Source of the DNA: Acidiferrobacterales bacterium
GTDB taxonomy: Bacteria > Pseudomonadota > Gammaproteobacteria > Acidiferrobacterales > SPGG2
DNA: 64,000 bases
Direction: 5' to 3'
NCBI GenBank assembly: GCA_046760105.1
Contig: JBHIDJ010000006.1
Location: 3,197-67,196 of the forward strand
Position numbers and translations under genes: made by a program. Numbering within the stretch: the stretch's first letter is position 1; every line of letters starts with the position of its first letter. Positions 43,650-64,000 of this stretch are shown piece after piece. The notes beneath the pieces were generated by a model that was not told the DNA's origin, did no database searches, and saw only the letters and a program-made list of their open reading frames with translations.

Positions 43650-44408
43650 ATGAAGTCGAACACTGGGGTCATGTCCGCCGCACGGGCGATGCTGGCTATC
43701 GTGGGGATTACGTTTTTCGCGGAGCTTGTGATCATGCTGCTGCTGGTCGACTTTGGCTATGCGACGCATCCTTTCTCGGTCATGCTGTTGGATGCCGGAA
43801 TACTTTCGTTTTTGATTGCTCCACCCATCTATTGGCTTGTGGCCACCCCCATCAAACGCGAGTACGCAAAACGCCAGGACGCCGAGGGCCGCGCCGCTGA
43901 GCTTGGCAAACAGGCCATCACAGACCCCCTCACGCGAACGAGAAACCGGCGTGGCATCACCATCGCCGTACTTGAAGCCATGGCCCACGCAGAGCGCTAT
44001 GAGCATCCGCTATCGGTCGCCATGGTGGACATCGATCACTTTAAAGAGGTGAACGACACTTACGGCCACAAGGCGGGCGATCGCGTGTTAGAGGGTGTCA
44101 CCGCTATTCTTGTGGAAACACTACGTATGCCGGATAAGGTGGGTCGCTATGGCGGCGAGGAGTTTCTGCTCGTGCTGCCGGAAACGGGGCTGGAACAAAC
44201 CACCAATATTGCCGACCGTATCCGCGCCACCGTTGCCGAAACCGAGTTCGATATTGGCGAAAAGAAGATAAGGCTGACGATCAGTATTGGCGCAACATTG
44301 TTCGTCAAGGGCGAGGACCTTGAAGAATTATTGTCGCGCGCTGACCGTGCGCTGTACGAAGCCAAGGAGTCGGGGCGCAACCTGGTGGTGAGCGCCAAGG
44401 GCTACTGA
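43650..44408 (+). CDS. membrane-anchored diguanylate cyclase (GGDEF)
   Basis: Two N-terminal TM helices, DPLTRTRNRRG, active-site RYGGEEF, and an RxxD I-site (RMPD) five residues upstream. Confidence 0.9.
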   Translation: MKSNTGVMSAARAMLAIVGITFFAELVIMLLLVDFGYATHPFSVMLLDAGILSFLIAPPIYWLVATPIKREYAKRQDAEGRAAELGKQAITDPLTRTRNRRGITIAVLEAMAHAERYEHPLSVAMVDIDHFKEVNDTYGHKAGDRVLEGVTAILVETLRMPDKVGRYGGEEFLLVLPETGLEQTTNIADRIRATVAETEFDIGEKKIRLTISIGATLFVKGEDLEELLSRADRALYEAKESGRNLVVSAKGY

Positions 44409-44446: not shown

Positions 44447-45385
44447 TTATTTCAGCATCTCCTCTACAACCGCACTCCATCCCAAGCCTAAGTTAGTCCG
44501 GTTGTATCCCCCGCCGCCCATGGCAATGATGCGCCCTTGGCAGAATTCATCAGCGACGGCGCACAAACGTTTGGCGGCGTGACCGTGCGCCTTGGGTGTG
44601 AACTGCATGTGTGTGATTGGATCACCCTTGATGCTATCGGCGCCGGCCTGCAACAAGATAATCTCCGGTTTACCCGCACGCACAAAATCCTCGAGCTGCG
44701 GCCATACCTGGTGAAACATCTCGTCATTCGCACCGGGCAACATGGGGATGTTTAACTTCGTGCCCTTCGCCGCCCCTTTTCCGGTTTCGTGTGCGAAACC
44801 GGTTCCGGGATAGAGGAAACGCCCGTCTTCGTGAATATCGGCGAAGATGAGATCAGGATCCTCCTCGAAGGCATAGAACACACCGTCGCCATGGTGCGCA
44901 TCGATGTCTACGTAGGCGATCCGTTTGACGCCGTATTCTTGGCGCAGGGTTTCGATTAACACGGCGGGGTCATTGAAAACGCAAAATCCCGCTGCCGAAT
45001 TCTTACGCGCGTGATGCAGCCCTGCGATCGGCACGAAGATTCGCGGGGAATTACCCGACATGCTATGGATTAGGCTGTTTAACCCTGAACCTACTACAAA
45101 CGATCCGGCTTCAAACACCCCTTTGAAGGCAGGCGTATCCCCATAATCCAAGTAGCCCATGCCGGTTTTCGACTGCTGCTTGACACGTTCGACGTAATCG
45201 CGGGTGTGAAACCGTAGGATTGCGTCCTCGGAGCAGCTGGCGGGGATCGCGATGTGGACGCGTTTATCAAGCCCCCGTTTTACCGCCTCACGCCAGAAGG
45301 CATCCATGCGATCCGGCCCGAAGGGATGTCCCTCGCCGAACCCGTAACGGGCGAGGTCCTCGCCAAGGTATACCTGCATAACCAT
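44447..45385 (-). CDS. histone deacetylase-family / AcuC-like deacetylase
   Basis: GLHHARKNSAAGFCVFND, YVDIDAHHGDGV, GGGGYN. Confidence 0.88.
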   Translation of the reverse strand: MVMQVYLGEDLARYGFGEGHPFGPDRMDAFWREAVKRGLDKRVHIAIPASCSEDAILRFHTRDYVERVKQQSKTGMGYLDYGDTPAFKGVFEAGSFVVGSGLNSLIHSMSGNSPRIFVPIAGLHHARKNSAAGFCVFNDPAVLIETLRQEYGVKRIAYVDIDAHHGDGVFYAFEEDPDLIFADIHEDGRFLYPGTGFAHETGKGAAKGTKLNIPMLPGANDEMFHQVWPQLEDFVRAGKPEIILLQAGADSIKGDPITHMQFTPKAHGHAAKRLCAVADEFCQGRIIAMGGGGYNRTNLGLGWSAVVEEMLK

Positions 45386-50991: not shown

Positions 50992-51228
50992 ATGCTGAGT
51001 CACATTGTCAATTTGGTGAGCGATTACGAACAGGACTACGGTTCGCGACCGAACCTGGTCTATATGAACGAGACCCACTACACCTACCTGCGCCAAGAGA
51101 TGCCGGGGGTAAGAGATCATAACGACGTAGTGGCGATCCTAGGTATTGATATTGCATTAAGCGATATCGCTGTTCGCCCGCACGTTGCGACGGTGCGGTA
51201 TACGGACGAGAACATTCTTGTGAGCTGA
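50992..51228 (+). CDS. hypothetical 78-aa protein (no family recognised)
   Basis: SD GGGGAGAGG at 50977-50985, then ATG 50992. Sequence MLSHIVNLVSDYEQDYGSRPNLVYMNETHYTYLRQEMPGVRDHNDVVAILGIDIALSDIAVRPHVATVRYTDENILVS. Flanked by a sigma-54 promoter and a rho-independent terminator. Confidence 0.6.
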   Translation: MLSHIVNLVSDYEQDYGSRPNLVYMNETHYTYLRQEMPGVRDHNDVVAILGIDIALSDIAVRPHVATVRYTDENILVS

Positions 51229-54300: not shown

Positions 54301-54498
54301 GTGGACGGCAAGCAAGCGGCATCGAAAACAGAATTCAAGACCTACATGTGCGTCGTCTGTGGTTTTGTCTACGACGAAGAGCAGGGTTTACCGGACGAAG
54401 GCATTGCTCCCGGGACCCCTTGGGAGGACATCCCCGACACTTGGACCTGCCCGGACTGCGGTGCCAGCAAGGACGAGTTTGAGCTGATTGAGATCTAA
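54301..54498 (+). CDS. rubredoxin
   Basis: [50 protein letters not shown] with two CxxCG knuckles. GTG 54301 start is uncertain. Confidence 0.9.
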
Positions 54499-54698: not shown

Positions 54699-54725
54699 GC
54701 TGACGCGACGAGTCAGCGTCTTTTT
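54699..54725 (+). terminator. rho-independent terminator
   Basis: Stem GCTGAC (54699-54704) with GTCAGC (54712-54717), loop gcgacga, then gtcTTTTT. It lies 200 nt after the rubredoxin stop, and the stem contains the stop codon of the convergent regulator gene (54713-54715). Confidence 0.6.
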
Positions 54726-57289
54726 GCGCGCCGAGAGCCCAAGCGCTCGATCTTGTAATGCAGCGTATTGGGACGTAGACCTAGCAAGCGCGCCGCCTTC
54801 GATTTATTGCCGTCACAGCGCTCAAGCGTCTGCGCGATGAGGCGTGCCTCGAACTCAGATACGTGCTGACCGAGGGACTTCTCCGTCACGGCGTAGTCGA
54901 GCTCTGGGAGCTTTTGTGGTTGCGGCTGTTTGGATTGCAGCCTGGAGAACACAGACGACTTTAGCACGGCCATATCGGCAGGGAAGTCCTCCGCCAGCAA
55001 ATCGTCGGCCTCGCTTTGACTGAGGTAGTGATAGGTACCGGCCTGCAGGTTGAACTGCAGCGTGTAATAGTGCACGAGAAGCGGGATATCGAGTTTTCTT
55101 TCGCGCATAGTTGGTATAACCAGTACAAAGGGCTTAGAGGACGCAGCCAGTTGCTGCAGTCTGACTGAAACCTCGTCCGCGTTGTTGTCGCACCCGGCGA
55201 TCACGCGTACACGGCCAGCGTGTGGAATCGCGATGCGGAGCTCGTCTTGCTGCAGTGCAGGTAAGCGACGGAGATTATCGATCATCAACGTCCCGTCACG
55301 CGCATCAGCGAGCAACTCAGTGAAACCAACCTGCCTTGCGAGCACCGTTTTGTTCTCAAGCTCCGCGGTCGTAAGTACACTGAACTTTCCGTCGTTACCG
55401 CTGCAACCATACATATAGCGCGCCAGCTCGATGGCCTCATGGACATCTTTCGATTCGATCAGCACAGGCTCCTTGAATCCCGCGATCCGTTCTGCGCAGT
55501 CAAGCAGTTCAGTAAAGACTTGACTGTGAGCGATGAGAGGATAATCCGGGTTATGAATAGCGCGTACCGACTTTTGCAGCTCTACCATTGCGCGGATTTT
55601 GCGTGTGAGCACCGCTTCCGTGAGTTCACCCGGTAGCACCTCGATCAGTGATCCCAGCAAGTTTCGTTTATGCTTTGAAACAAACTCGCTTGCGCCTGGC
55701 CCGTAAACCAGAACCGCTATCGCCACATGATTTTCGTGGATCATCTTTAAGAGCTTACTGCGATGTACCGCAGGGGTGCCGGCCTCGATGAGGCATACCA
55801 GCACGTCAGGCGCGCTGTGGCGCTTAAAACCGGCGGAACCTGGCCCGACAAAGTGAGCCACCTGTGGGAAATGTTTGCGAAGGTGTTTGAGCATTGTTTT
55901 GTCACGGCCCAACAGCGTAACCGTCGGGCCGAACGTTTCCCCCGCAATCGCGCTCGCACCGGTCGTTAGGCCATCTGTCGGCTGTTCGCTGGCTAGGCGC
56001 ATATTTTCATTGCGGAGCACATCGACTTCGCGCCACAAGCATGTCAATGCATGCTCTGTTTTTTGCAATTGCCGTTCGAGGGCATGTATTTGGTCATGAG
56101 CATGCGCACGCATTGTCAGGAGCTTGTCGAGGAACAGGTCCGCCATTTTGTCGAACAGCTGTTCGACCACTCGAAAATCAAATGGCGTGTAGACCTGCTC
56201 ACTGAAAGAGTCGCCCAGTAACAGCCAACCCGATGCATTGCGACTGTGTGGATAGAAGGGGACTATCGCCGCGACACCATGGTGGTTCATCAGAGCGTGA
56301 GTCTTTGGACTGGTATCCACGATTTCGTTGGCCACGATGATATGCGCAAAACTTTGCAGCGCCTCGTCAGGAATTTGTACCATACGCTTTGATGCCCCGG
56401 CTGTAGCCAACACCGCTCCTTGGTTACCCAACAGGGCCACCGGACATCTCAGGGTTTCCGCCAGGCGAGTAACAGCTTCATTGACGGAATCGAGGTCAGC
56501 GATCTCGGTGATCATAGCGCGGATCCTGTGATAAAACGCCGTCTTGCGCTTTCTGACCTTCGACCACGGTATATAAAACTGGATATCGAATAACCTATGT
56601 TGATGAATGGCATAGGCGGTAACCACAAGAAAGTAAGTGATGGCAATCGGGAATGTTACGGCAGCGTTGAACCAACCAATACCAAGGCGTAACAAGATAA
56701 GTACGGTTAGCATCACAAGCGCCATCGGGATGATGGCGACCAGCAGGACCGAGTTCTTCGCCCTTTTTTGCGAAGTATACTGGTAGATTGATCCGTAGAC
56801 TAAAATTCCGATGACGCTCAAGAAAATACCGATCGCGTAGAACTCAAACACAAAGTATAAGGGACCAGATGCACGTGTTACGCTGTATTCAAAACGTACG
56901 AAGTCATTGACTAACCATGGTGTAAAAAGTAGCAAAATTTCGAGGACGATAGCGTATGAGTAAACAGCTGTTAGCGTGAGCCTCATTCTCCACATGTTGT
57001 GTTGGTCGAATGCTAAGGAAACCACCAGGTGAAACAAAAGCGCGAAGCCAACAATCCCAGCAGCGTAGTAGATGGTGGCTTCGATGTATGGAAGCGTGTT
57101 GTTGTCAATGAGATTGTGGACGTGCCAAATCTCGGCAACGTTTTGAATCGAAAGCGCGAATAGAAAATAGAGGTAAATGCGGGTCTGCGCATTATGCGTT
57201 CTAGAGAAATGGGCGTAGGCAAAAATGCCACCTTTGAATGCCAACGCGATGATGGCGGGGAGGCTAATTAAGAACGCGTTTAAACCCAT
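54713..57289 (-). CDS. membrane-tethered NtrC-like regulator: 7TM + GAF-like + degenerate receiver-like + degenerate sigma-54 AAA+ + Fis-type HTH
   Basis: 858 aa. About 7 TM helices in the first 250 aa. A GAF-like segment (ITEIADLDSVNEAV...WLLLGDSF), then a coiled coil. An AAA+-like region has the Walker A position reading VLIESKDVHEAIELAR (no GxxGxGK), Walker B reading GTLMIDNL (DN, not DE), and no GAFTGA. C-terminal HTH_8 is LERCDGNKSKAARLLGLRPNTLHYKIERLG. Confidence 0.8.
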   Translation of the reverse strand: MGLNAFLISLPAIIALAFKGGIFAYAHFSRTHNAQTRIYLYFLFALSIQNVAEIWHVHNLIDNNTLPYIEATIYYAAGIVGFALLFHLVVSLAFDQHNMWRMRLTLTAVYSYAIVLEILLLFTPWLVNDFVRFEYSVTRASGPLYFVFEFYAIGIFLSVIGILVYGSIYQYTSQKRAKNSVLLVAIIPMALVMLTVLILLRLGIGWFNAAVTFPIAITYFLVVTAYAIHQHRLFDIQFYIPWSKVRKRKTAFYHRIRAMITEIADLDSVNEAVTRLAETLRCPVALLGNQGAVLATAGASKRMVQIPDEALQSFAHIIVANEIVDTSPKTHALMNHHGVAAIVPFYPHSRNASGWLLLGDSFSEQVYTPFDFRVVEQLFDKMADLFLDKLLTMRAHAHDQIHALERQLQKTEHALTCLWREVDVLRNENMRLASEQPTDGLTTGASAIAGETFGPTVTLLGRDKTMLKHLRKHFPQVAHFVGPGSAGFKRHSAPDVLVCLIEAGTPAVHRSKLLKMIHENHVAIAVLVYGPGASEFVSKHKRNLLGSLIEVLPGELTEAVLTRKIRAMVELQKSVRAIHNPDYPLIAHSQVFTELLDCAERIAGFKEPVLIESKDVHEAIELARYMYGCSGNDGKFSVLTTAELENKTVLARQVGFTELLADARDGTLMIDNLRRLPALQQDELRIAIPHAGRVRVIAGCDNNADEVSVRLQQLAASSKPFVLVIPTMRERKLDIPLLVHYYTLQFNLQAGTYHYLSQSEADDLLAEDFPADMAVLKSSVFSRLQSKQPQPQKLPELDYAVTEKSLGQHVSEFEARLIAQTLERCDGNKSKAARLLGLRPNTLHYKIERLGSRRAKRR

Positions 57290-58019
57290 TGTTCAAGTTT
57301 TCAATCCCCGGAGGGAGAACACCGTCCGCAACCGATGAGCAAAAACGAGAATCAAGCACCAAAGACTATCGTTTTTGGGGTGGGTCGGCAAAAGATCAGG
57401 CTGCAGCCACACCAAACCTGCTTGACTAATTGCTAGCGCGCCTCCTCATGTCAATAGAAAAAACTTGATCGCCATTTTTAACTTCTTGATTCTTAACACA
57501 ATTATAAAGATTTAGGAGTATATTGCAGTGATAAGGTTACCGAAAGTACTGACAGTCTTCGGAATAATATCAATAGAAATTTTGCGTACTCGGCATGTTG
57601 CCGCAGGACGTTCTTACCGACTTGGTGGTGAACAAATCGGCAATGTCTCCAGGTTGCTAGCCCGATTTGGCCATAGACTGCGTATACATGGGGCTACGTA
57701 ACCTATTGTTTTGTTTAACTATTGTTGGCATATCGGTTACCAAATATCAGCATCTGGTGGGACGATGATTTGGCGTGCTGAATTTGACGCTGCATCGGCC
57801 GCTCGACGCTTCACAGGCCGCCGCCCTCGCTGCCTTTGGCCCCCACCACCGGCGCGTAGCTGGCCGGATGGGATGAAGCGGTGGATTAACGCTTGTGCCG
57901 GGAAACCGGTAACATTGCGCCTCGCTCAACTAGGGTCACCGCCGCCAATGCGAACCGCGGGCTGGCGTAGCCGATAATAGTTCGTATGTTTAAAGGAGCT
58001 TACGTATAAGGAGTGTTCT

Positions 58020-59318
58020 GTGGCGGCTAGAAAGGTTTATGTCATCGATGGTGCGCGCACACCGTTTTTGAAAGCGCAGACCGCTCCGGGTGCGTTTAGT
58101 GCCGCCGACCTGGCAGTGGCGGCCGGTCGCCCGGTGTTGGCGCGTTTGCCATTCTCTCCCTCGGACATTGACGAAGTCATCGTCGGCTGTGTCGTCGCTG
58201 CGCCCGATGAGGCCAATATCGCCCGAATTATTGCGCTCCGGCTAGGTTGCAGTGAACGCGTCCCCGCCTTCACGGTACAGCGCAACTGCGCCTCCGGTTT
58301 GCAGGCAGTCGCATCTGCGCGCGAGCGCATCGCGCTCGGTATGTCAGAGATCGTGCTCGCCGGTGGGACCGAGGCCATGAGTCGTGCCCCCGTACAATGG
58401 AATGCCGCTATGGTCGGCTGGTTGGCGAACGTCATGCGCGCCCGCGGTAGATTCGCGCGTCTTAAAGCGATCGCCGGCATTCGTCGAGCCTACTTGAAGC
58501 CTGTGTTCACCCTGCTACTGGGTCTGAGCGACCCGTTGGTAAAGCTCTCGATGGGGCAAACTGCCGAGGTGTTGGCACATCGCTTCGGTATCGTGCGCGA
58601 ACACCAGGATGCCTACGCGCTGCAAAGTCACGGACGCCTGGCGCTCACGTTTGATCGTGGCGAAATGGGTGATGAGGTGGTAACGCTGTATGACACCCGC
58701 GGACATCACTATTTCGAGGATACTGGCTTACGGCGTGATACCACGGTGGAACGACTTGCCAAGCTCAAACCCGTGTTTGATCGAAAGTACGGTTCGGTCA
58801 CCGCCGGTAACAGCTCGCAAGTTACGGATGGCGCTGCCATGCTCGTGCTGGCAAGCGAAGATGCCGTAAAGGCACACAGCCTACCTGTGATGGGTGAGGT
58901 GCTCGATCATGCCTGGGCCGGCGTGGATCCACGACAAATGGGTCTAGGGCCGGTCCACGCCGTCACTAAGTTGTTGCAAGCAAATGATGTACGCATGCGT
59001 GACCTTGCCCAGCTTGAGCTCAATGAGGCGTTCGCTGCCCAAGTGCTCGCCTGTCAAGCCGCATGGGACAGCGCTGACTACGCACGCGATGAACTAGGAC
59101 TGAAAAGACCGCTAGGCAGCATGGATCCTGACCGGCTAAATCCCAACGGTGGGGCCATCGCCTGCGGCCACCCTGTCGGCGCGAGCGGCGCGCGTCTCGT
59201 GTTACACCTATTGCGAGCGCTGCAACGCAAGGACGGCGGGCTGGGTGTTGCCACTCTGTGCATTGGCGGTGGCCAGGGCGGTGCGATGCTTTTTCGCGTT
59301 GACGGAGACGCAGCGTGA
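58020..59318 (+). CDS. acetyl-CoA C-acyltransferase (thiolase, FadA/FadI-like)
   Basis: VYVIDGARTPF, QRNCASGLQAV (active-site Cys), NPNGGAIACGHPVGASG, LCIGGGQGGAM. GTG start. Confidence 0.92.
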   Translation: MAARKVYVIDGARTPFLKAQTAPGAFSAADLAVAAGRPVLARLPFSPSDIDEVIVGCVVAAPDEANIARIIALRLGCSERVPAFTVQRNCASGLQAVASARERIALGMSEIVLAGGTEAMSRAPVQWNAAMVGWLANVMRARGRFARLKAIAGIRRAYLKPVFTLLLGLSDPLVKLSMGQTAEVLAHRFGIVREHQDAYALQSHGRLALTFDRGEMGDEVVTLYDTRGHHYFEDTGLRRDTTVERLAKLKPVFDRKYGSVTAGNSSQVTDGAAMLVLASEDAVKAHSLPVMGEVLDHAWAGVDPRQMGLGPVHAVTKLLQANDVRMRDLAQLELNEAFAAQVLACQAAWDSADYARDELGLKRPLGSMDPDRLNPNGGAIACGHPVGASGARLVLHLLRALQRKDGGLGVATLCIGGGQGGAMLFRVDGDAA

Positions 59319-61336
59319 AGCACTGGCGGGTACAACAACCTGGCGAGCATGCCGTGGCAACCCTGGATGTCGCCGGCGCATCGGCCAACATCCTCACCCA
59401 TGAAGTGCTGCATGAGTTCGATGAAGTCATCACCGAGCTCGAAAAACAACCGCCGACGGGGCTCATCATCTGCTCGGGGAAAACCACGGGCTTTATCGTC
59501 GGCGCCGACGTGCGCGAGTTCGAAAACATCAATGACTCGGCACGTGCCGCCGAGCTCGCGCGTGCTGGGCAACACGTGCTCAATCGGTTGGCGCAGCTTC
59601 CATTTCCCACGACCGTGGTCATTAGCGGAAACTGCCTGGGCGGTGGACTGGAGCTGGCGCTCGCGTGCACCTACCGTGTGGCGTGCGATGACGCAGGCAC
59701 GCGCTTGGGGCTACCGGAGGTGCGACTAGGCATCCACCCGGGGTTTGCCGGCACCGTACGGCTACCGGCGTTGATCGGCCCATTGCCTGCTTTGGACCTG
59801 ATGTTGACCGGGCGCAGTGTGAGTGCCAGGCAGGCACACAAACTGGGGTTGGTGGATGACGTGGTGCCCGAGCGGCATTTGTTGGATGCAGCGGTCGCGT
59901 GTTTGGCAAAACGGCGGCCAACGCGAAAGTCGCGTTGGTCCAAGCGTCTACCGGGATGGTGGCCGATACGATCGGTGGTCTACCGCCGGGTGCTGCGACA
60001 GCTGCAAAAGAAAGTGAATCCCGACCACTACCCCGCCCCCTACCGCATCGTAGAATTGCGCAAGAGCCGCGGCACACAGGAGCAAGAAGCGATTTCCCTT
60101 GGCGAGTTGTTAGTCGGCCGTACCAGCCGCAACTTAGTGCACGTTTTTCTGCTGGGAGAAGAGCTCAAGCGCCAAGGGCGCGCACATCGACATGACGTCA
60201 AACATGTGCACGTGATCGGGGCGGGGGTAATGGGGGGCGATATCGCGGCCTGGTCTGCATATAAGGGTTTTAGCGTCAGCCTCCAGGACCAGAACGCGGA
60301 AATCGTTGCCCGCGCCATAGAGCGTGCTGCCGAATTCTTTCAGAAGCGGCTCCGGGAGCCGCGTGCTGTCCAGCAGGCGTTGGACCGGCTGATGCCGGAT
60401 ATCGCGGGCGATGGCCTGCGACACGCTGATCTCGTGATCGAAGCGATCATCGAGGACGCCAGCGCTAAGCAGCAGCTATTTCGGCGGGTAGAGCAAATCG
60501 CCCCCAGGGAGGCTGTGCTTACGTCCAACACCTCTAGTATTCCCTTGGAGGCACTGTCATCGGCGCTGCATGACCCCATGCGTTTCGTGGGGCTGCACTA
60601 CTTCAACCCCGTCGCGAAGATGCAGCTGGTCGAGGTGGTGCGCGGGGGGAAGACATCGGAGCTGGCGTTAAACCGTGCGCGCGCCTTTACCGTTGCGATC
60701 GACAAGCTGCCGCTCGTCGTCAGCAGCAGTCCCGGGTTTTTGGTGAATCGCATCTTGACACCGTATCTGATGGAGGCCATGAAGATGGTGGAAGAGGAGG
60801 TTCCGATAGCGGCGATCGATCGCGCGGCGACGGAATTCGGAATGCCGGTGGGTCCTATTGAACTTGCAGATACAGTGGGGTTGGACATCTGCCTGTCGGT
60901 GGCGGAAGAACTGGCAGAACCCTTGGGGGTGACGGTGCCCGACAAGCTGCGCACCATGGTTGAACGGGGGCTTCTCGGCAAGAAGAGCGGGCGTGGTTTC
61001 TACAAGTACGACGCGAAGGGGAGACCGAAGGCGCGCACTAGCGGCAAACCCAGCGATGTGCCCGTCACTGAGCGACTGGTGCTGCGTATATTAAACGAGG
61101 CAATGGCCTGTCTGCGGCAGGGGGTCGTGGAGAACGCCGATGCGATCGATGCGGGGATGGTCTATGGCACAGGCTTCGCGCCCTATCTCGGCGGGCCCTT
61201 GCGGTACGTGGAGAGCTTGGGGGAGAACGGCATCAGCCATAGTCTGTACCGGCTGTCTGAAGAGTACGGTGAGCGATTCATTCCCGATCCCGGTTGGTCG
61301 CAACCCAGCCTGTTAGCGCGGTCAGTGGGCGACTAA
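59315..61336 (+). CDS. fatty-acid oxidation complex alpha subunit (enoyl-CoA hydratase / 3-hydroxyacyl-CoA dehydrogenase, FadB/FadJ-like)
   Basis: Crotonase part GFIVGADVREF and GNCLGGGLELALAC. NAD-binding HVHVIGAGVMGGDIA. The thiolase-first order resembles fadIJ. The start overlaps the thiolase stop. Confidence 0.92.
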   Translation: MKHWRVQQPGEHAVATLDVAGASANILTHEVLHEFDEVITELEKQPPTGLIICSGKTTGFIVGADVREFENINDSARAAELARAGQHVLNRLAQLPFPTTVVISGNCLGGGLELALACTYRVACDDAGTRLGLPEVRLGIHPGFAGTVRLPALIGPLPALDLMLTGRSVSARQAHKLGLVDDVVPERHLLDAAVACLAKRRPTRKSRWSKRLPGWWPIRSVVYRRVLRQLQKKVNPDHYPAPYRIVELRKSRGTQEQEAISLGELLVGRTSRNLVHVFLLGEELKRQGRAHRHDVKHVHVIGAGVMGGDIAAWSAYKGFSVSLQDQNAEIVARAIERAAEFFQKRLREPRAVQQALDRLMPDIAGDGLRHADLVIEAIIEDASAKQQLFRRVEQIAPREAVLTSNTSSIPLEALSSALHDPMRFVGLHYFNPVAKMQLVEVVRGGKTSELALNRARAFTVAIDKLPLVVSSSPGFLVNRILTPYLMEAMKMVEEEVPIAAIDRAATEFGMPVGPIELADTVGLDICLSVAEELAEPLGVTVPDKLRTMVERGLLGKKSGRGFYKYDAKGRPKARTSGKPSDVPVTERLVLRILNEAMACLRQGVVENADAIDAGMVYGTGFAPYLGGPLRYVESLGENGISHSLYRLSEEYGERFIPDPGWSQPSLLARSVGD

Positions 61337-61957: not shown

Positions 61958-63424
61958 CTAGCGAACGATCTTAAGTTTCTGGCCGGGAGCAAGCTCGCCG
62001 CTGGGATATCGGTCATTAATGAGACGCAAGACCCTCGCTGGATAGTTGGGAATAGGTGAGTCCGTCGCGAGCTGGGCAAACGAGTTACCGGGCTTGGCCT
62101 GCACGATTTGGATTCGCAGCCCCTCGGCGAGCTTGTGTTCGGTGGCGGTTAGCGCATGCAAGCTCCGGGCGGTGTTCAGGAATAGCGGATCGGCTGACGC
62201 AAACGCCCTGTCTGTTTTCCCGGCGCCCAGGAATATATAGGCCTTGTCTCGGAAGTAAATCACACTTACTCGGGTATCGTGGCGACCGAAAGGCCATAAC
62301 AATCGACTCACCGCAGTGTAGGCCTCCAACGCCGTGCCGCTAAGCTCCTGCCCGCGCGCAAGCTTCTTGAGCTTCAGACGTTGGACCATAAATTCGCGCG
62401 GGGAAATGCGCCGGTTAAGATCTTCGGCCATTATCTTCAGGACTGCATTGTTGTCGCGACTGCTAGCCTCAATCTCCTGCGGCCGGTTTTCTATGCGCCA
62501 ATTCTCCGGGAACTCCAGTGCGAAGCCGAGATCCTTGTGATAGAAATTGCGCCCGTAGCGCACCCCTTGTTTCACGCTGTCGCCGAACACCATACCGTCA
62601 AGCAGTGTTAAGAATTCATCGCGTCCCGTGTGGGGGTTGGCCACTTTATGCTTATCCGCTTCCGCTACTACCTCTTGCAGACGTTGGTCCGCACTTGGAT
62701 GAGAGGCGAATACGCCATGATAGACACGTGCCTCGCGTCCCTCGGCCTTGGCGCGCTCTTTCTCGAACTCCTCCTGGTTTTTTAGGATCTCGAGCACATC
62801 GAGCACGGCCCGCGGCTCGTAGCCCGAGAGCGCCAGATATTGCGCGCCTAGTCGATCGGCCTCAAGCTCATGTTTGCGGCCGTAACCGCGGATTATCGCA
62901 GTCCCGAAAAGGTTAAACAGGTTTGCCGCCCCCTGAGTCGCGAGTTCGGGAATGAAGATGGCACCGATGGTGTAGCCGATACGCGCCGCCGTGCTGGCTG
63001 TGTATTGCCGTACGGCATGGCGTGCCGTGACATGACCGATCTCATGACCAAGCACCGCCGCCAGCTCGGCCTCCGAGTTTAAATAGCTCAGCAGCCCACG
63101 GGTGATATAGATATAGCCGCCCGGCAGCGCAAAGGCGTTCACCTCCGGGCTGTCGAGCACGGTAAAACGGTAGAACAATGCTGGTCGGTGGCTCAGGCCC
63201 GCGAGCTTCTCGCCGACGCGTCGGACATAATCCTGTAACTCGGAATCGTCGTAGACACCGTATTGCTTCCGGATCTTGGGGTCATACTGGCGACCGATCT
63301 CTATTTCTCGGTCTTCGGACATAAGCGCAGGTTGCTTCTTTCCCGTGACTGGGTTCTTCGCGCAAGCGTAGAACCACAAGGGCGTTGTCAACACCACCAA
63401 GATCAATACAGCGCGTCGGACCAT
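61958..63424 (-). CDS. M48-family metalloprotease lipoprotein with C-terminal LysM-like domain
   Basis: Lipobox LWFYAC, HEIGHVTARH (HExxH), and C-terminal IQIVQAKPGNSFAQLA...LAPGQKLKIV (LysM-like). Start set to ATG 63424. Confidence 0.85.
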   Translation of the reverse strand: MVRRAVLILVVLTTPLWFYACAKNPVTGKKQPALMSEDREIEIGRQYDPKIRKQYGVYDDSELQDYVRRVGEKLAGLSHRPALFYRFTVLDSPEVNAFALPGGYIYITRGLLSYLNSEAELAAVLGHEIGHVTARHAVRQYTASTAARIGYTIGAIFIPELATQGAANLFNLFGTAIIRGYGRKHELEADRLGAQYLALSGYEPRAVLDVLEILKNQEEFEKERAKAEGREARVYHGVFASHPSADQRLQEVVAEADKHKVANPHTGRDEFLTLLDGMVFGDSVKQGVRYGRNFYHKDLGFALEFPENWRIENRPQEIEASSRDNNAVLKIMAEDLNRRISPREFMVQRLKLKKLARGQELSGTALEAYTAVSRLLWPFGRHDTRVSVIYFRDKAYIFLGAGKTDRAFASADPLFLNTARSLHALTATEHKLAEGLRIQIVQAKPGNSFAQLATDSPIPNYPARVLRLINDRYPSGELAPGQKLKIVR

Positions 63425-63458
63425 GACAACTTGCCTTTTTACAAAGCTTTTGGACGCT

Positions 63459-64000
63459 TCAGTTAAGTAATTTGAGCATAGCAGGATGGCGCACCCGAAT
63501 CTGTAAGCCATCGTCGTGCCGTCTTACCCAGCCGCGCACGCTAACCTGTTTTCCTACGAAGTCCTCGGGCCGGCCTTTGAAATAGCTCCAGTCTTTGCGT
63601 GGCACCATCAGCGTTAACGCACCCGATAGCCGGAGATAGATGTAGTTCCGACTACGTGAAATATTTCTAACTTGGGCGACCACCAGGCGAAAGCCGGTGT
63701 GCTTGGACTGCACGTGTTTGGCATCTATGGGCTCATAGTAGGGATGTGCCCACACCCCGATCCTATGGGCGCGCGCCACCCGCTCCGCCTTCTGGTAAGC
63801 GTCTAACCGGCTTAGATTCGGCGGAATTGCAATTACCACCGCCAGACCACGCGCCAGCAGCTCTTGCTGCGCGCTGCGGCCGTCGGCGAGCCACACGTGC
63901 GCGAGCAGCCGGCCATAGCGATCTTGCGGGGCACGCCCGATGACAAGCCTTACGGTTTGACCGCCGACCAGTTGCTCGAGCCCGCGGCGAGCCGCCTGCG
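63459..64000 (-). CDS. thermonuclease (SNase-like) family protein, 5'-truncated by window edge
   Basis: The frame stays open past the track start: ...VRLVIGRAPQDRYGRLLAHVWLADGRSAQQELLARGLA, typical of the staphylococcal-nuclease fold. It runs off the window end. Confidence 0.8.
   Translation of the reverse strand, partial: QAARRGLEQLVGGQTVRLVIGRAPQDRYGRLLAHVWLADGRSAQQELLARGLAVVIAIPPNLSRLDAYQKAERVARAHRIGVWAHPYYEPIDAKHVQSKHTGFRLVVAQVRNISRSRNYIYLRLSGALTLMVPRKDWSYFKGRPEDFVGKQVSVRGWVRRHDDGLQIRVRHPAMLKLLN

Follow-up and report, generated by a model that had tools for sequence, protein, structure and literature searches.

Several atypical enhancer-binding proteins (EBPs) lack the GAFTGA motif and act at σ70 promoters: TyrR, HupR, HsfA, PhhR, NtrX, and VpsR (PMC6158489), as well as the NtrC proteins of Caulobacter and Rhodobacter (PMC10274813). 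NtrX acts without σ54, as a repressor at its own promoter, and VpsR has ND in place of the DE of Walker B (PMC6158489). Transmembrane (TM) transcription regulators form a second kind, with 50,302 members in 9,673 genomes, 27% of them with at least three TM segments (PMC10269533); in that census HTH_8 is present in 72 members and HisKA_7TM in 22, and we found no Sigma54_activat entry in the supplementary text examined. Here we describe a gene in a 64,000-nucleotide stretch (the window) of an Acidiferrobacterales bacterium (GenBank assembly GCA_046760105.1, contig JBHIDJ010000006.1, positions 3,197 to 67,196) whose product belongs to a conserved, apparently unstudied family that joins these two kinds. 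We file it so because the tests that define bacterial EBPs and receivers failed, and because, with seven predicted TM helices plus HTH_8, the protein comes under the broad definition of TM transcription regulators (a DNA-binding domain and one or more TM regions within a single protein). It shares with atypical EBPs an AAA+ homology without GAFTGA and an HTH_8 domain, but it has no P-loop and is predicted to be membrane integral rather than soluble. Our literature searches found no description of this regulator family. We interpret the protein as a functional one-component, membrane-integral regulator with an EBP-derived cassette that would work independently of ATP and σ54 in vivo, a reading to which we assign a probability of roughly 0.6; we are highly confident of the architecture and moderately so of the operator but have little confidence as to the signal. 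The gene and its predicted parts are as follows.

54713..57289, minus strand: whole gene, stop codon included, for a membrane-integral pseudo-EBP regulator of 858 aa (open reading frame [ORF] call)
56585..57289, minus strand: residues 1-235, seven TM helices, a HisKA_7TM-type sensor (sub-threshold Pfam, AlphaFold2 [AF2] model, relatives above threshold)
56180..56584, minus strand: residues 236-370, highly basic juxtamembrane segment and small GAF-like alpha/beta domain (AF2, Foldseek)
55970..56179, minus strand: residues 371-440, long signaling helix or coiled coil leading from the sensor to the output cassette (AF2)
55565..55927, minus strand: residues 455-575, pseudo-receiver with a (beta-alpha)5 fold that lacks the phosphorylation chemistry (AF2, Foldseek)
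55124..55537, minus strand: residues 585-722, pseudo-AAA+ alpha/beta subdomain from the σ54 EBP central domain (profile, Foldseek)
54920..55123, minus strand: residues 723-790, AAA+ lid with conserved P-x-L-R-E-R731-x-x-D734 and LLVHYF (weak Pfam AAA_lid_14)
54743..54859, minus strand: residues 811-849, Fis-type HTH_8 DNA-binding domain with the family-invariant recognition helix RPNTLHYK (Pfam)

The gene is a single uninterrupted ORF with an ATG start. A protein from an Acidiferrobacterales metagenome-assembled genome (MAG), P0001, is 100% identical to the window protein and is annotated solely as "helix-turn-helix domain-containing protein." A word-indexed protein search returned 247 relatives, at least 120 of them full length (∼830 to 880 aa, 40 to 56% identity), and an exhaustive search of 1.84 billion cluster representatives returned 135 clusters below 1e-30, ∼40 of them full length. 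In a scan of one genome per species, ∼40 species-level genomes had the long form. They belong to Acidiferrobacterales, Ca. Muproteobacteria, and unclassified Gammaproteobacteria, with one Arenicellales MAG; among the Acidiferrobacterales is the isolate Sulfurifustis variabilis (AP014936; ortholog at ∼3,902,690-3,905,245). A few bins with the long form are labeled otherwise, as Chloroflexia (L032), Sideroxydans (L047), Burkholderiales (L042), or Acidobacteria (L035). A deep clade (loci L021-L027 and L040) stands at 34 to 37% identity.

The motif census and conservation figures given below come from an alignment of 115 family sequences. The window protein differs at only 2 of the 149 columns conserved in ≥90% of sequences (family median, 4; rank, 87 of 115). 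The original prediction had named pseudogene decay as an outcome that would overturn it; such decay is ruled out by this low count and by the more than 115 full-length relatives. The motif losses described below are a family trait rather than decay: relatives keep conserved replacement motifs of their own, and the window copy breaks so few conserved positions.

The C-terminal half, as predicted, has the layout of the NtrC family over ∼400 aa, and the peptides quoted in support of that layout all lie at their expected positions in the ORF. HTH_8 was the sole Pfam match above its cutoff in the window protein (residues 811-849, E = 1.9e-15), so that the helix-turn-helix (HTH) domain is intact, as had been claimed. 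Below their cutoffs were HisKA_7TM (residues 14-236; 23 bits, cutoff 28.6), Sigma54_activ_2 (residues 587-706; 23.1 bits, cutoff 25), and a weak AAA_lid_14 match (residues 729-770). Relatives do pass such cutoffs: P0147 has a HisKA_7TM score of 57.9 bits, and PF14532 or PF25601 is listed for several relatives and PF16927 for many. Matches to NCBIfam consisted of weak C-terminal similarity to many σ54 regulators, all far under their cutoffs. An AF2 model of residues 440-858, built on the family alignment (predicted local distance difference test [pLDDT], 92.2; predicted template modeling score [pTM], 0.82), orders the domains as (beta-alpha)5, AAA+ alpha/beta, helical lid, and three-helix HTH. 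When this model was compared to the PDB with Foldseek, full-length receiver-AAA+-HTH proteins led the matches: NtrX (2e-16), then NtrC4, NtrC1, LuxO, VpsR, and FleQ. The AAA+ core matched PspF with a root mean square deviation of ∼3.5 Å and a template modeling (TM) score of 0.72. A family profile searched against PDB sequences found ZraR (3e-19), NtrX (2e-16), FleQ (4e-13), NifA (1e-12), PspF (7e-12), and VpsR (8e-11). Together, profile and model establish homology of the pseudo-AAA+ domain to the EBP central domain.

The catalytic features of that domain are gone, in agreement with the original prediction; neither the alignments nor the census turned up an intact P-loop or a GAFTGA motif that had been misread. 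The Walker A position reads ESKDVHEA in the window protein, and the ZraR P-loop GDSGTGKE aligns to a family "skdvaeav"; GK[ST] occurs in 0 of 115 sequences, replaced by the pattern [ST]-x-D-x-x-[EQ]-A. Walker B is D671-N672 in the window protein, and the family has D (58), T (23), or E (10) followed by N (50), D (25), or G (22). The GAFTGA loop (L1) is missing as a ∼17-residue block containing ESELFGHEKGAFTGA that is deleted relative to ZraR, FleQ, NifA, and NtrC4. FleQ had been cited as a protein without GAFTGA, but our alignment shows GHEKGAFTGA in FleQ. The pre-sensor-I insertion (L2) has lost ∼12 residues, the arginine-finger region is six residues shorter and shows no conservation at positions 708-719, and the sensor-I Thr/Asn is not retained in the family. 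Four residues in the former nucleotide cleft are nevertheless conserved: D615 and R695 (111 sequences each), R731 (114), and D734 (all 115). Column conservation is lowest in the alpha/beta AAA core (0.46), which carries many indels, and highest in the HTH (0.84).

From these losses we infer that the pseudo-AAA+ domain would be unable to bind ATP in the canonical way, hydrolyze it, or engage σ54, and that it has probably been kept as a structural or regulatory scaffold. Canonical EBPs (NtrC1, NtrC4, ZraR, PspF, and FleQ) share the homologous AAA+ core and lid, the sensor-II LRER..D, and the C-terminal HTH_8, whereas the family has lost Walker A, the DE of Walker B, the GAFTGA L1, the L2/pre-sensor-I insertion, and the arginine fingers; because of these losses, we predict that the protein cannot remodel the σ54 holoenzyme. 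NtrX of Brucella abortus (PDB 5m7n, 5m7o, and 5m7p) is the best structural match across the receiver-AAA+-HTH cassette and likewise has a Fis-type HTH and no GAFTGA. NtrX, however, is soluble, has a phosphorylatable receiver, keeps its P-loop (GPSGAGK), and has ATP and ADP structures; the present family is membrane integral, its receiver is a pseudo-receiver, and both the P-loop and the pre-sensor-I insertion are gone. VpsR of Vibrio cholerae, TyrR, HupR, PhhR, HsfA, and the Caulobacter and Rhodobacter NtrC proteins resemble the family in having an EBP-derived AAA+ domain with GAFTGA absent or altered, but all are cytoplasmic, most keep Walker A, none is fused to a polytopic membrane sensor, and VpsR responds to cyclic di-GMP (c-di-GMP).

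Ahead of the AAA+ domain, the AF2 secondary structure gives a receiver fold at residues ∼457-574, and the Foldseek alignments that run through it cover full-length NtrX, NtrC1, NtrC4, and LuxO. Pfam Response_reg gave no match in this domain of the window protein. We took positional equivalence from HMMER alignments and the model rather than from superposition. E502 lies opposite the phospho-Asp in the alignment to NtrC1, as expected from the claim that the phospho-acceptor was missing; across the family, 50 sequences have E here and 49 have D. In the family census, the acidic pair is replaced by G461-R462, the Thr/Ser by Y/F/H529, and the Lys by L/M552. By this alignment, position 502 is not a conserved phosphorylation site, because D and E alternate there and the other catalytic residues are missing. 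A near-invariant motif, LLG-R462-D463-K464, follows strand 1 of the pseudo-receiver.

The N-terminal half had been described as a seven-helix membrane domain plus a GAF-like module, and our models agree, the GAF part more weakly. In the AF2 model of residues 1-450 (pLDDT, 85.9), residues 10-231 form seven long helices with an external beta-hairpin at 127-141, followed by a strongly basic juxtamembrane stretch (IPWSKVRKRKTAFY), an alpha/beta domain at ∼244-370, and a single 65-residue helix at 371-435. The predicted membrane part would place the N terminus outside and the C terminus in the cytoplasm, because 15 Lys and Arg residues fall on the predicted cytoplasmic loops versus 3 outside. The TM helices carry near-invariant polar residues (K19, Y25, N50, E53, H87, Y110, Y145, and E149), a pattern that fits a binding or relay site inside the membrane. 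In degree of conservation, the juxtamembrane stretch and GAF-like domain rank second within the protein (column conservation, 0.72). Foldseek searches with the model gave marginal matches of two kinds, generic seven-helix bundles and GAF domains; the GAF-like domain matched the GAF domains of CodY (TM score, 0.60; E = 6e-3) and PtsP (TM score, 0.53) at marginal E values, and no Pfam GAF match was obtained for the window protein. "7TM plus GAF-like" thus appears to be a reasonable label for the N-terminal half, with its GAF part marginal.

Members of the ToxR, CadC, and TcpP class also combine membrane-embedded input and a cytoplasmic DNA-binding domain in one polypeptide, so that regulation has to take place from the membrane. 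ToxR and CadC, however, cross the membrane with one TM helix, and they carry a winged helix at the N terminus and a periplasmic sensor, whereas the family has seven TM helices, a C-terminal HTH_8, and ∼600 cytoplasmic residues. The architecture had been called uncommon; this holds for the particular combination, which is rare, but not for membrane-tethered transcription regulators in general, which are common (PMC10269533). We set aside proteolytic release of the cytoplasmic part by the M48 peptidase encoded at 61958-63511, whose gene is not in the gene tables of five relatives.

Both halves of the protein recur separately in other relatives, and for this reason residues 1-440 are a bona fide signal-input module and residues 455-858 a self-contained output module, which the window protein fuses directly. 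Short paralogs such as P0147 (521 aa) are 44% identical over residues 8-432 and then pass directly to HTH_8; residues 433-803 are absent, and their recognition helix differs from that of the long form. These paralogs (∼500 aa; L030, L031, L033, and L038, with matches of ∼1.5 kb) co-occur with the long form in the same genomes. In two hybrid histidine kinases (P0197 and P0235), the same 7TM/GAF-like/helix module runs into HisKA, ahead of HisKA-HATPase-receiver; these proteins and the HisKA_7TM kinases of haloarchaea (PMC5847659) share the input module but use it to drive HisKA/HATPase and phosphotransfer, whereas here it is wired straight to a DNA-binding cassette. Conversely, three soluble proteins (P0217, P0226, and P0257) have a genuine receiver followed by the full pseudo-receiver/pseudo-AAA+/HTH cassette, at 35% identity, with no P-loop and the same recognition helix, RPNTLHY[KR]L. 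The soluble family is rare, with three clusters (L087:5045-9824, L088:328-4745, and L169:7393-11806), always in an operon of FIST sensor, histidine kinase, and regulator. A protein search with the cassette alone found one further soluble relative, and a metagenome scan with P0226 found generic receiver domains only. A further variant (L086:851-3292, plus strand) is an 813-aa fusion, P0156, that joins the 7TM/GAF/coiled-coil sensor to an entire FabH-like enzyme; a regulator with a normal start comes next. If genuine, the fusion would be a Rosetta-stone link between sensor and enzyme, but it is weak evidence, coming from a single 4-kb contig and possibly an assembly artifact.

[quoted passage not shown] The deep clade keeps it even though the rest of the synteny is lost there. 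A search of 23 loci that allowed one mismatch brought out a 14-bp dyad, TTCAA-N4-TTGAA (TTCAAAATTTTGAA in full, commonly TCATTCAAAATTTTGAATGA). In ∼20 of the 23 it lies upstream of the FabH-like gene, usually 100 to 160 bp from the gene start; shuffled sequences gave a maximum of 3 to 5. An earlier operator search of six loci for exact 9- to 12-mers and perfect dyads had found nothing. With up to two mismatches, the family loci (769 kb) gave 28 matches, nearly all of them at this same position, versus 3 in 557 kb of unrelated EBP loci. In L004-L047 the sites lie ∼130 bp upstream of that gene (for example, L005:6718, L044:8673, and L046:8645).

The core of this palindrome, TCAAAAATTTGA, also accompanies the soluble relatives of L088 and L169, whose recognition helix is the same and which have neither FabH-like nor fad genes nearby. 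The copies, TTCAAAAATTTGAA at L088:5286 and ATCAAAAATTTGAT in the homologous intergenic region at L169:13485, both fall in the gap that separates an ABM-domain gene from csrA, adjacent to the regulator. At up to one mismatch, the core is expected by chance ∼1e-3 times in 7 kb and occurs 0 times in the 557 kb of control loci. This test rests on L088 and L169; the downstream region of L087 differs, and its contig ends. Because the palindrome recurs both at FabH-like promoters and beside soluble relatives that share the recognition helix, we consider it probable that it is the operator bound by this type of HTH.

Five relatives with called genes show a common order: (fadD)-fadB-thiolase-fadE, divergent from the FabH-like KAS III gene and the regulator, and then a small conserved ORF, fadL, rubredoxin, and hemH-thiD-thiE-hemL. 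The fad cluster (fadE-fadA-fadB) is divergent from the regulator in ∼14 of 40 loci. The FabH-like protein is nearest to NCBIfam PRK09258, at 232 bits (below the cutoff of 285). KAS III enzymes of the PA3286/FabW type shunt beta-oxidation intermediates into fatty acid synthesis (PMC4549310), and a role of this type would suit the fad neighborhood. In the window, two further features flank the regulator.

57407..57746, minus strand: frameshifted remnant of a FabH-like KAS III gene, ∼aa 227-341 of 344 (tblastn/tblastx)
58020..61336, plus strand: divergent thiolase (58020-59318) and FadB-like enoyl-CoA hydratase/3-hydroxyacyl-CoA dehydrogenase (59315-61336), what is left of a fadE-fadA-fadB cluster (Pfam, synteny)

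The remnant matches the FabH-like genes of seven loci in both tblastn and tblastx searches, split over three frames with stop codons, and it ends ∼110 bp before the regulator start, the same spacing as in the relatives. The 57290-58019 interval, which had been proposed as a spacer for binding assays, is indeed a 730-bp gap between regulator and thiolase but consists partly of this C-terminal third of the FabH-like gene. We found no fadE, fadL, hemH, small conserved ORF, or palindrome in the window. Because the FabH-like gene is present as a remnant only and these other features are missing relative to the relatives, a deletion has evidently fused the FabH-like 3′ end to the upstream region of the thiolase, removing fadE, two-thirds of the FabH-like gene, and the palindrome. 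The original prediction also proposed the regulator's own promoter or the divergent fad operon as targets; this fits the family, but no palindrome occurs anywhere in the window at up to three mismatches (four relaxed matches fall inside ORFs or between convergent genes), and there is no operator-like palindrome between the regulator and the divergent thiolase/FadB-like genes. On the sequence as it stands, the window regulator must act on sites outside the window, because it is fully conserved and other lineages (L002, L011, L013, L014, L016, and L018) keep the regulator without a FabH-like gene. A scan for σ54 promoters (TGGCAC-N5-TTGCW, up to two mismatches) found no −24/−12 element in 57290-58019 and 48 matches across the window versus 38.6 expected; a σ70 consensus scan likewise found no promoter in the spacer upstream of the regulator.

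Several other genes lie in these neighborhoods. The small conserved ORF (115 to 127 aa) is convergent with the regulator in many relatives (minus strand: L001:10553-10909, L003:10613-10960, L004:10572-10955, and L005:10573-10920); it has the motif CPYT..V..AL.LLP.GV.F.CGRFEEG..FWCDVGF.PQVQAWG and no Pfam or NCBIfam match, and it is absent from the deep clade as well as from the window. The rubredoxin gene (54 aa; 54334-54495, plus strand) lies between the regulator and thiD, and its product is 70% identical to the Sulfurifustis copy. A 78-aa ORF (50992-51225, plus strand) has a conserved, unannotated counterpart (72% identity) in every relative examined; this ORF, located between hemL and a cytochrome c gene, carries no family assignment in the locus tables. 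The GGDEF gene to which attention had been drawn does exist (252 aa; 43650-44408, plus strand) and adjoins a histone-deacetylase-family gene (44447-45385, minus strand); at ∼10 kb from the regulator, and with no syntenic counterpart in the relatives, it is uninformative.

We propose that the seven-helix sensor, together with the GAF-like domain next to it, picks up a signal at the membrane or within it, and that the long signaling helix relays it to the pseudo-receiver/pseudo-AAA+/HTH cassette. The cassette, descended from an NtrC-type EBP, would serve as an ATP-independent scaffold for conformational change or dimerization: in what is probably a dimer, the sensor would reposition the two HTH_8 domains on the TTCAA-N4-TTGAA operator. 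Action would presumably be at σ70-type promoters, as in other atypical EBPs, and in the family it would control the KAS III/fatty acid locus, probably in response to a lipid-like signal. Because the palindrome precedes the FabH-like gene and regulator in a region shared with the divergent fadE-fadA-fadB genes, the data suggest control of fatty acid recycling or degradation by a hydrophobic or lipid signal; the lipid nature of the signal is a guess from context.

A number of observations weigh against this proposal. The [ST]-x-D615/R695/R731/D734 cluster might still form a non-canonical ligand site, and several atypical EBPs still need nucleotide binding (PMC10274813). The genes hemH, thiD, thiE, and hemL are conserved nearby equally well, so that the fad association is partly inherited synteny. 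The soluble-relative support for the operator comes from two related loci only. Finally, the palindrome is absent from loci without the FabH-like gene, including the window, except for a degenerate copy in L036, and it could belong to another regulator of the FabH-like gene.

The alternative that survives best takes up this last point: the regulator would act on the fad (beta-oxidation) operon through another site, and the palindrome would belong to a different transcription factor of the FabH-like gene. The regulator does persist beside fadE or fadA where the FabH-like gene and palindrome are both absent, and two loci, L011 and L036, have a second palindrome, AATCA-n-TGATT, in common in the fadE-regulator gap. 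We nonetheless regard this alternative as unlikely, if still plausible: the first palindrome recurs beside soluble relatives with the same recognition helix and no FabH-like or fad neighbors, it persists across the deep clade, where the recognition helix is likewise invariant, and motif searches found no alternative motif in common. The second palindrome (L011:9836-9850, ATAATCAATGATTAT; L036:8876-8888, AAATCATTGATTT) may be the site of another regulator of fad genes.

A second possibility is that the regulator is a second-messenger receptor like FleQ and VpsR: c-di-GMP or a different nucleotide would bind to the pseudo-AAA+ domain, alone or jointly with the pseudo-receiver, and gate DNA binding, the membrane part being mainly an anchor. 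VpsR and FleQ are structural neighbors, VpsR also has a Walker B other than DE (PMC6158489), D615, R695, R731, and D734 are conserved in the former nucleotide cleft, and the window contains a GGDEF gene. The c-di-GMP analogy, which the original prediction had drawn, found no support here, since most atypical EBPs keep the P-loop and this family has lost it entirely; c-di-GMP is reported to act on FleQ via Walker A (Baraquet and Harwood 2013, reference 58 of PMC6158489). Moreover, conservation is lowest in the indel-rich pseudo-AAA core, whereas the 7TM and GAF-like parts are better conserved and include the conserved intramembrane polar residues; the short paralog works without the cassette; and the GGDEF gene is distant and not syntenic. 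We therefore consider such a receptor quite improbable.

It is more doubtful still that the window regulator is an orphan that has lost its operon partner and operator and is idle or on its way to being lost. It is true that just a frameshifted piece of the FabH-like gene remains, that the window has no fadE, fadL, small conserved ORF, or palindrome, and that no promoter-like consensus lies upstream, but the ORF is intact with fewer conserved positions broken than in the median relative, and the six lineages that keep the regulator without a FabH-like gene point to a role independent of that gene. A canonical σ54 EBP with misread motifs, for which the overall homology to the EBP central domain speaks, can be dismissed at the sequence level, as all 115 members lack GxxxxGK[ST], DE, and the GAFTGA and pre-sensor-I blocks, and the adjacent region has no −24/−12 promoter.

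Returning to the membrane-integral, ATP-independent regulator, we can imagine a bolder version in which one protein closes a lipid-signal circuit: the FabH-like KAS III would make or channel a hydrophobic acyl product, the polar pocket of the 7TM/GAF module would sense it in the bilayer, and the ATP-blind cassette would feed back on the FabH-like-regulator operon via TTCAAAATTTTGAA. Taken as a whole this circuit is rather unlikely; if true, it would be a sensor for membrane-lipid homeostasis or a receptor for a lipid autoinducer, with a direct fusion replacing the kinase-plus-NtrC/LuxO-type relay.

Among the EBP derivatives compared here, this is the most stripped down: the P-loop, Walker B, and both σ54-contacting insertions have been lost, while the fold and a new set of cleft residues are conserved. 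The family can thus show what an AAA+ domain is used for once it is no longer an ATPase. The same cassette appears wired to a phosphorylatable receiver or to a 7TM-GAF sensor, and the same sensor to kinases or to an HTH, which offers a ready-made comparison between two-component and one-component membrane signaling, with a two-component pathway apparently condensed into a single membrane protein. The predicted operator, together with the complete genome of the isolate Sulfurifustis variabilis, which carries an ortholog, makes this hypothesis directly testable.

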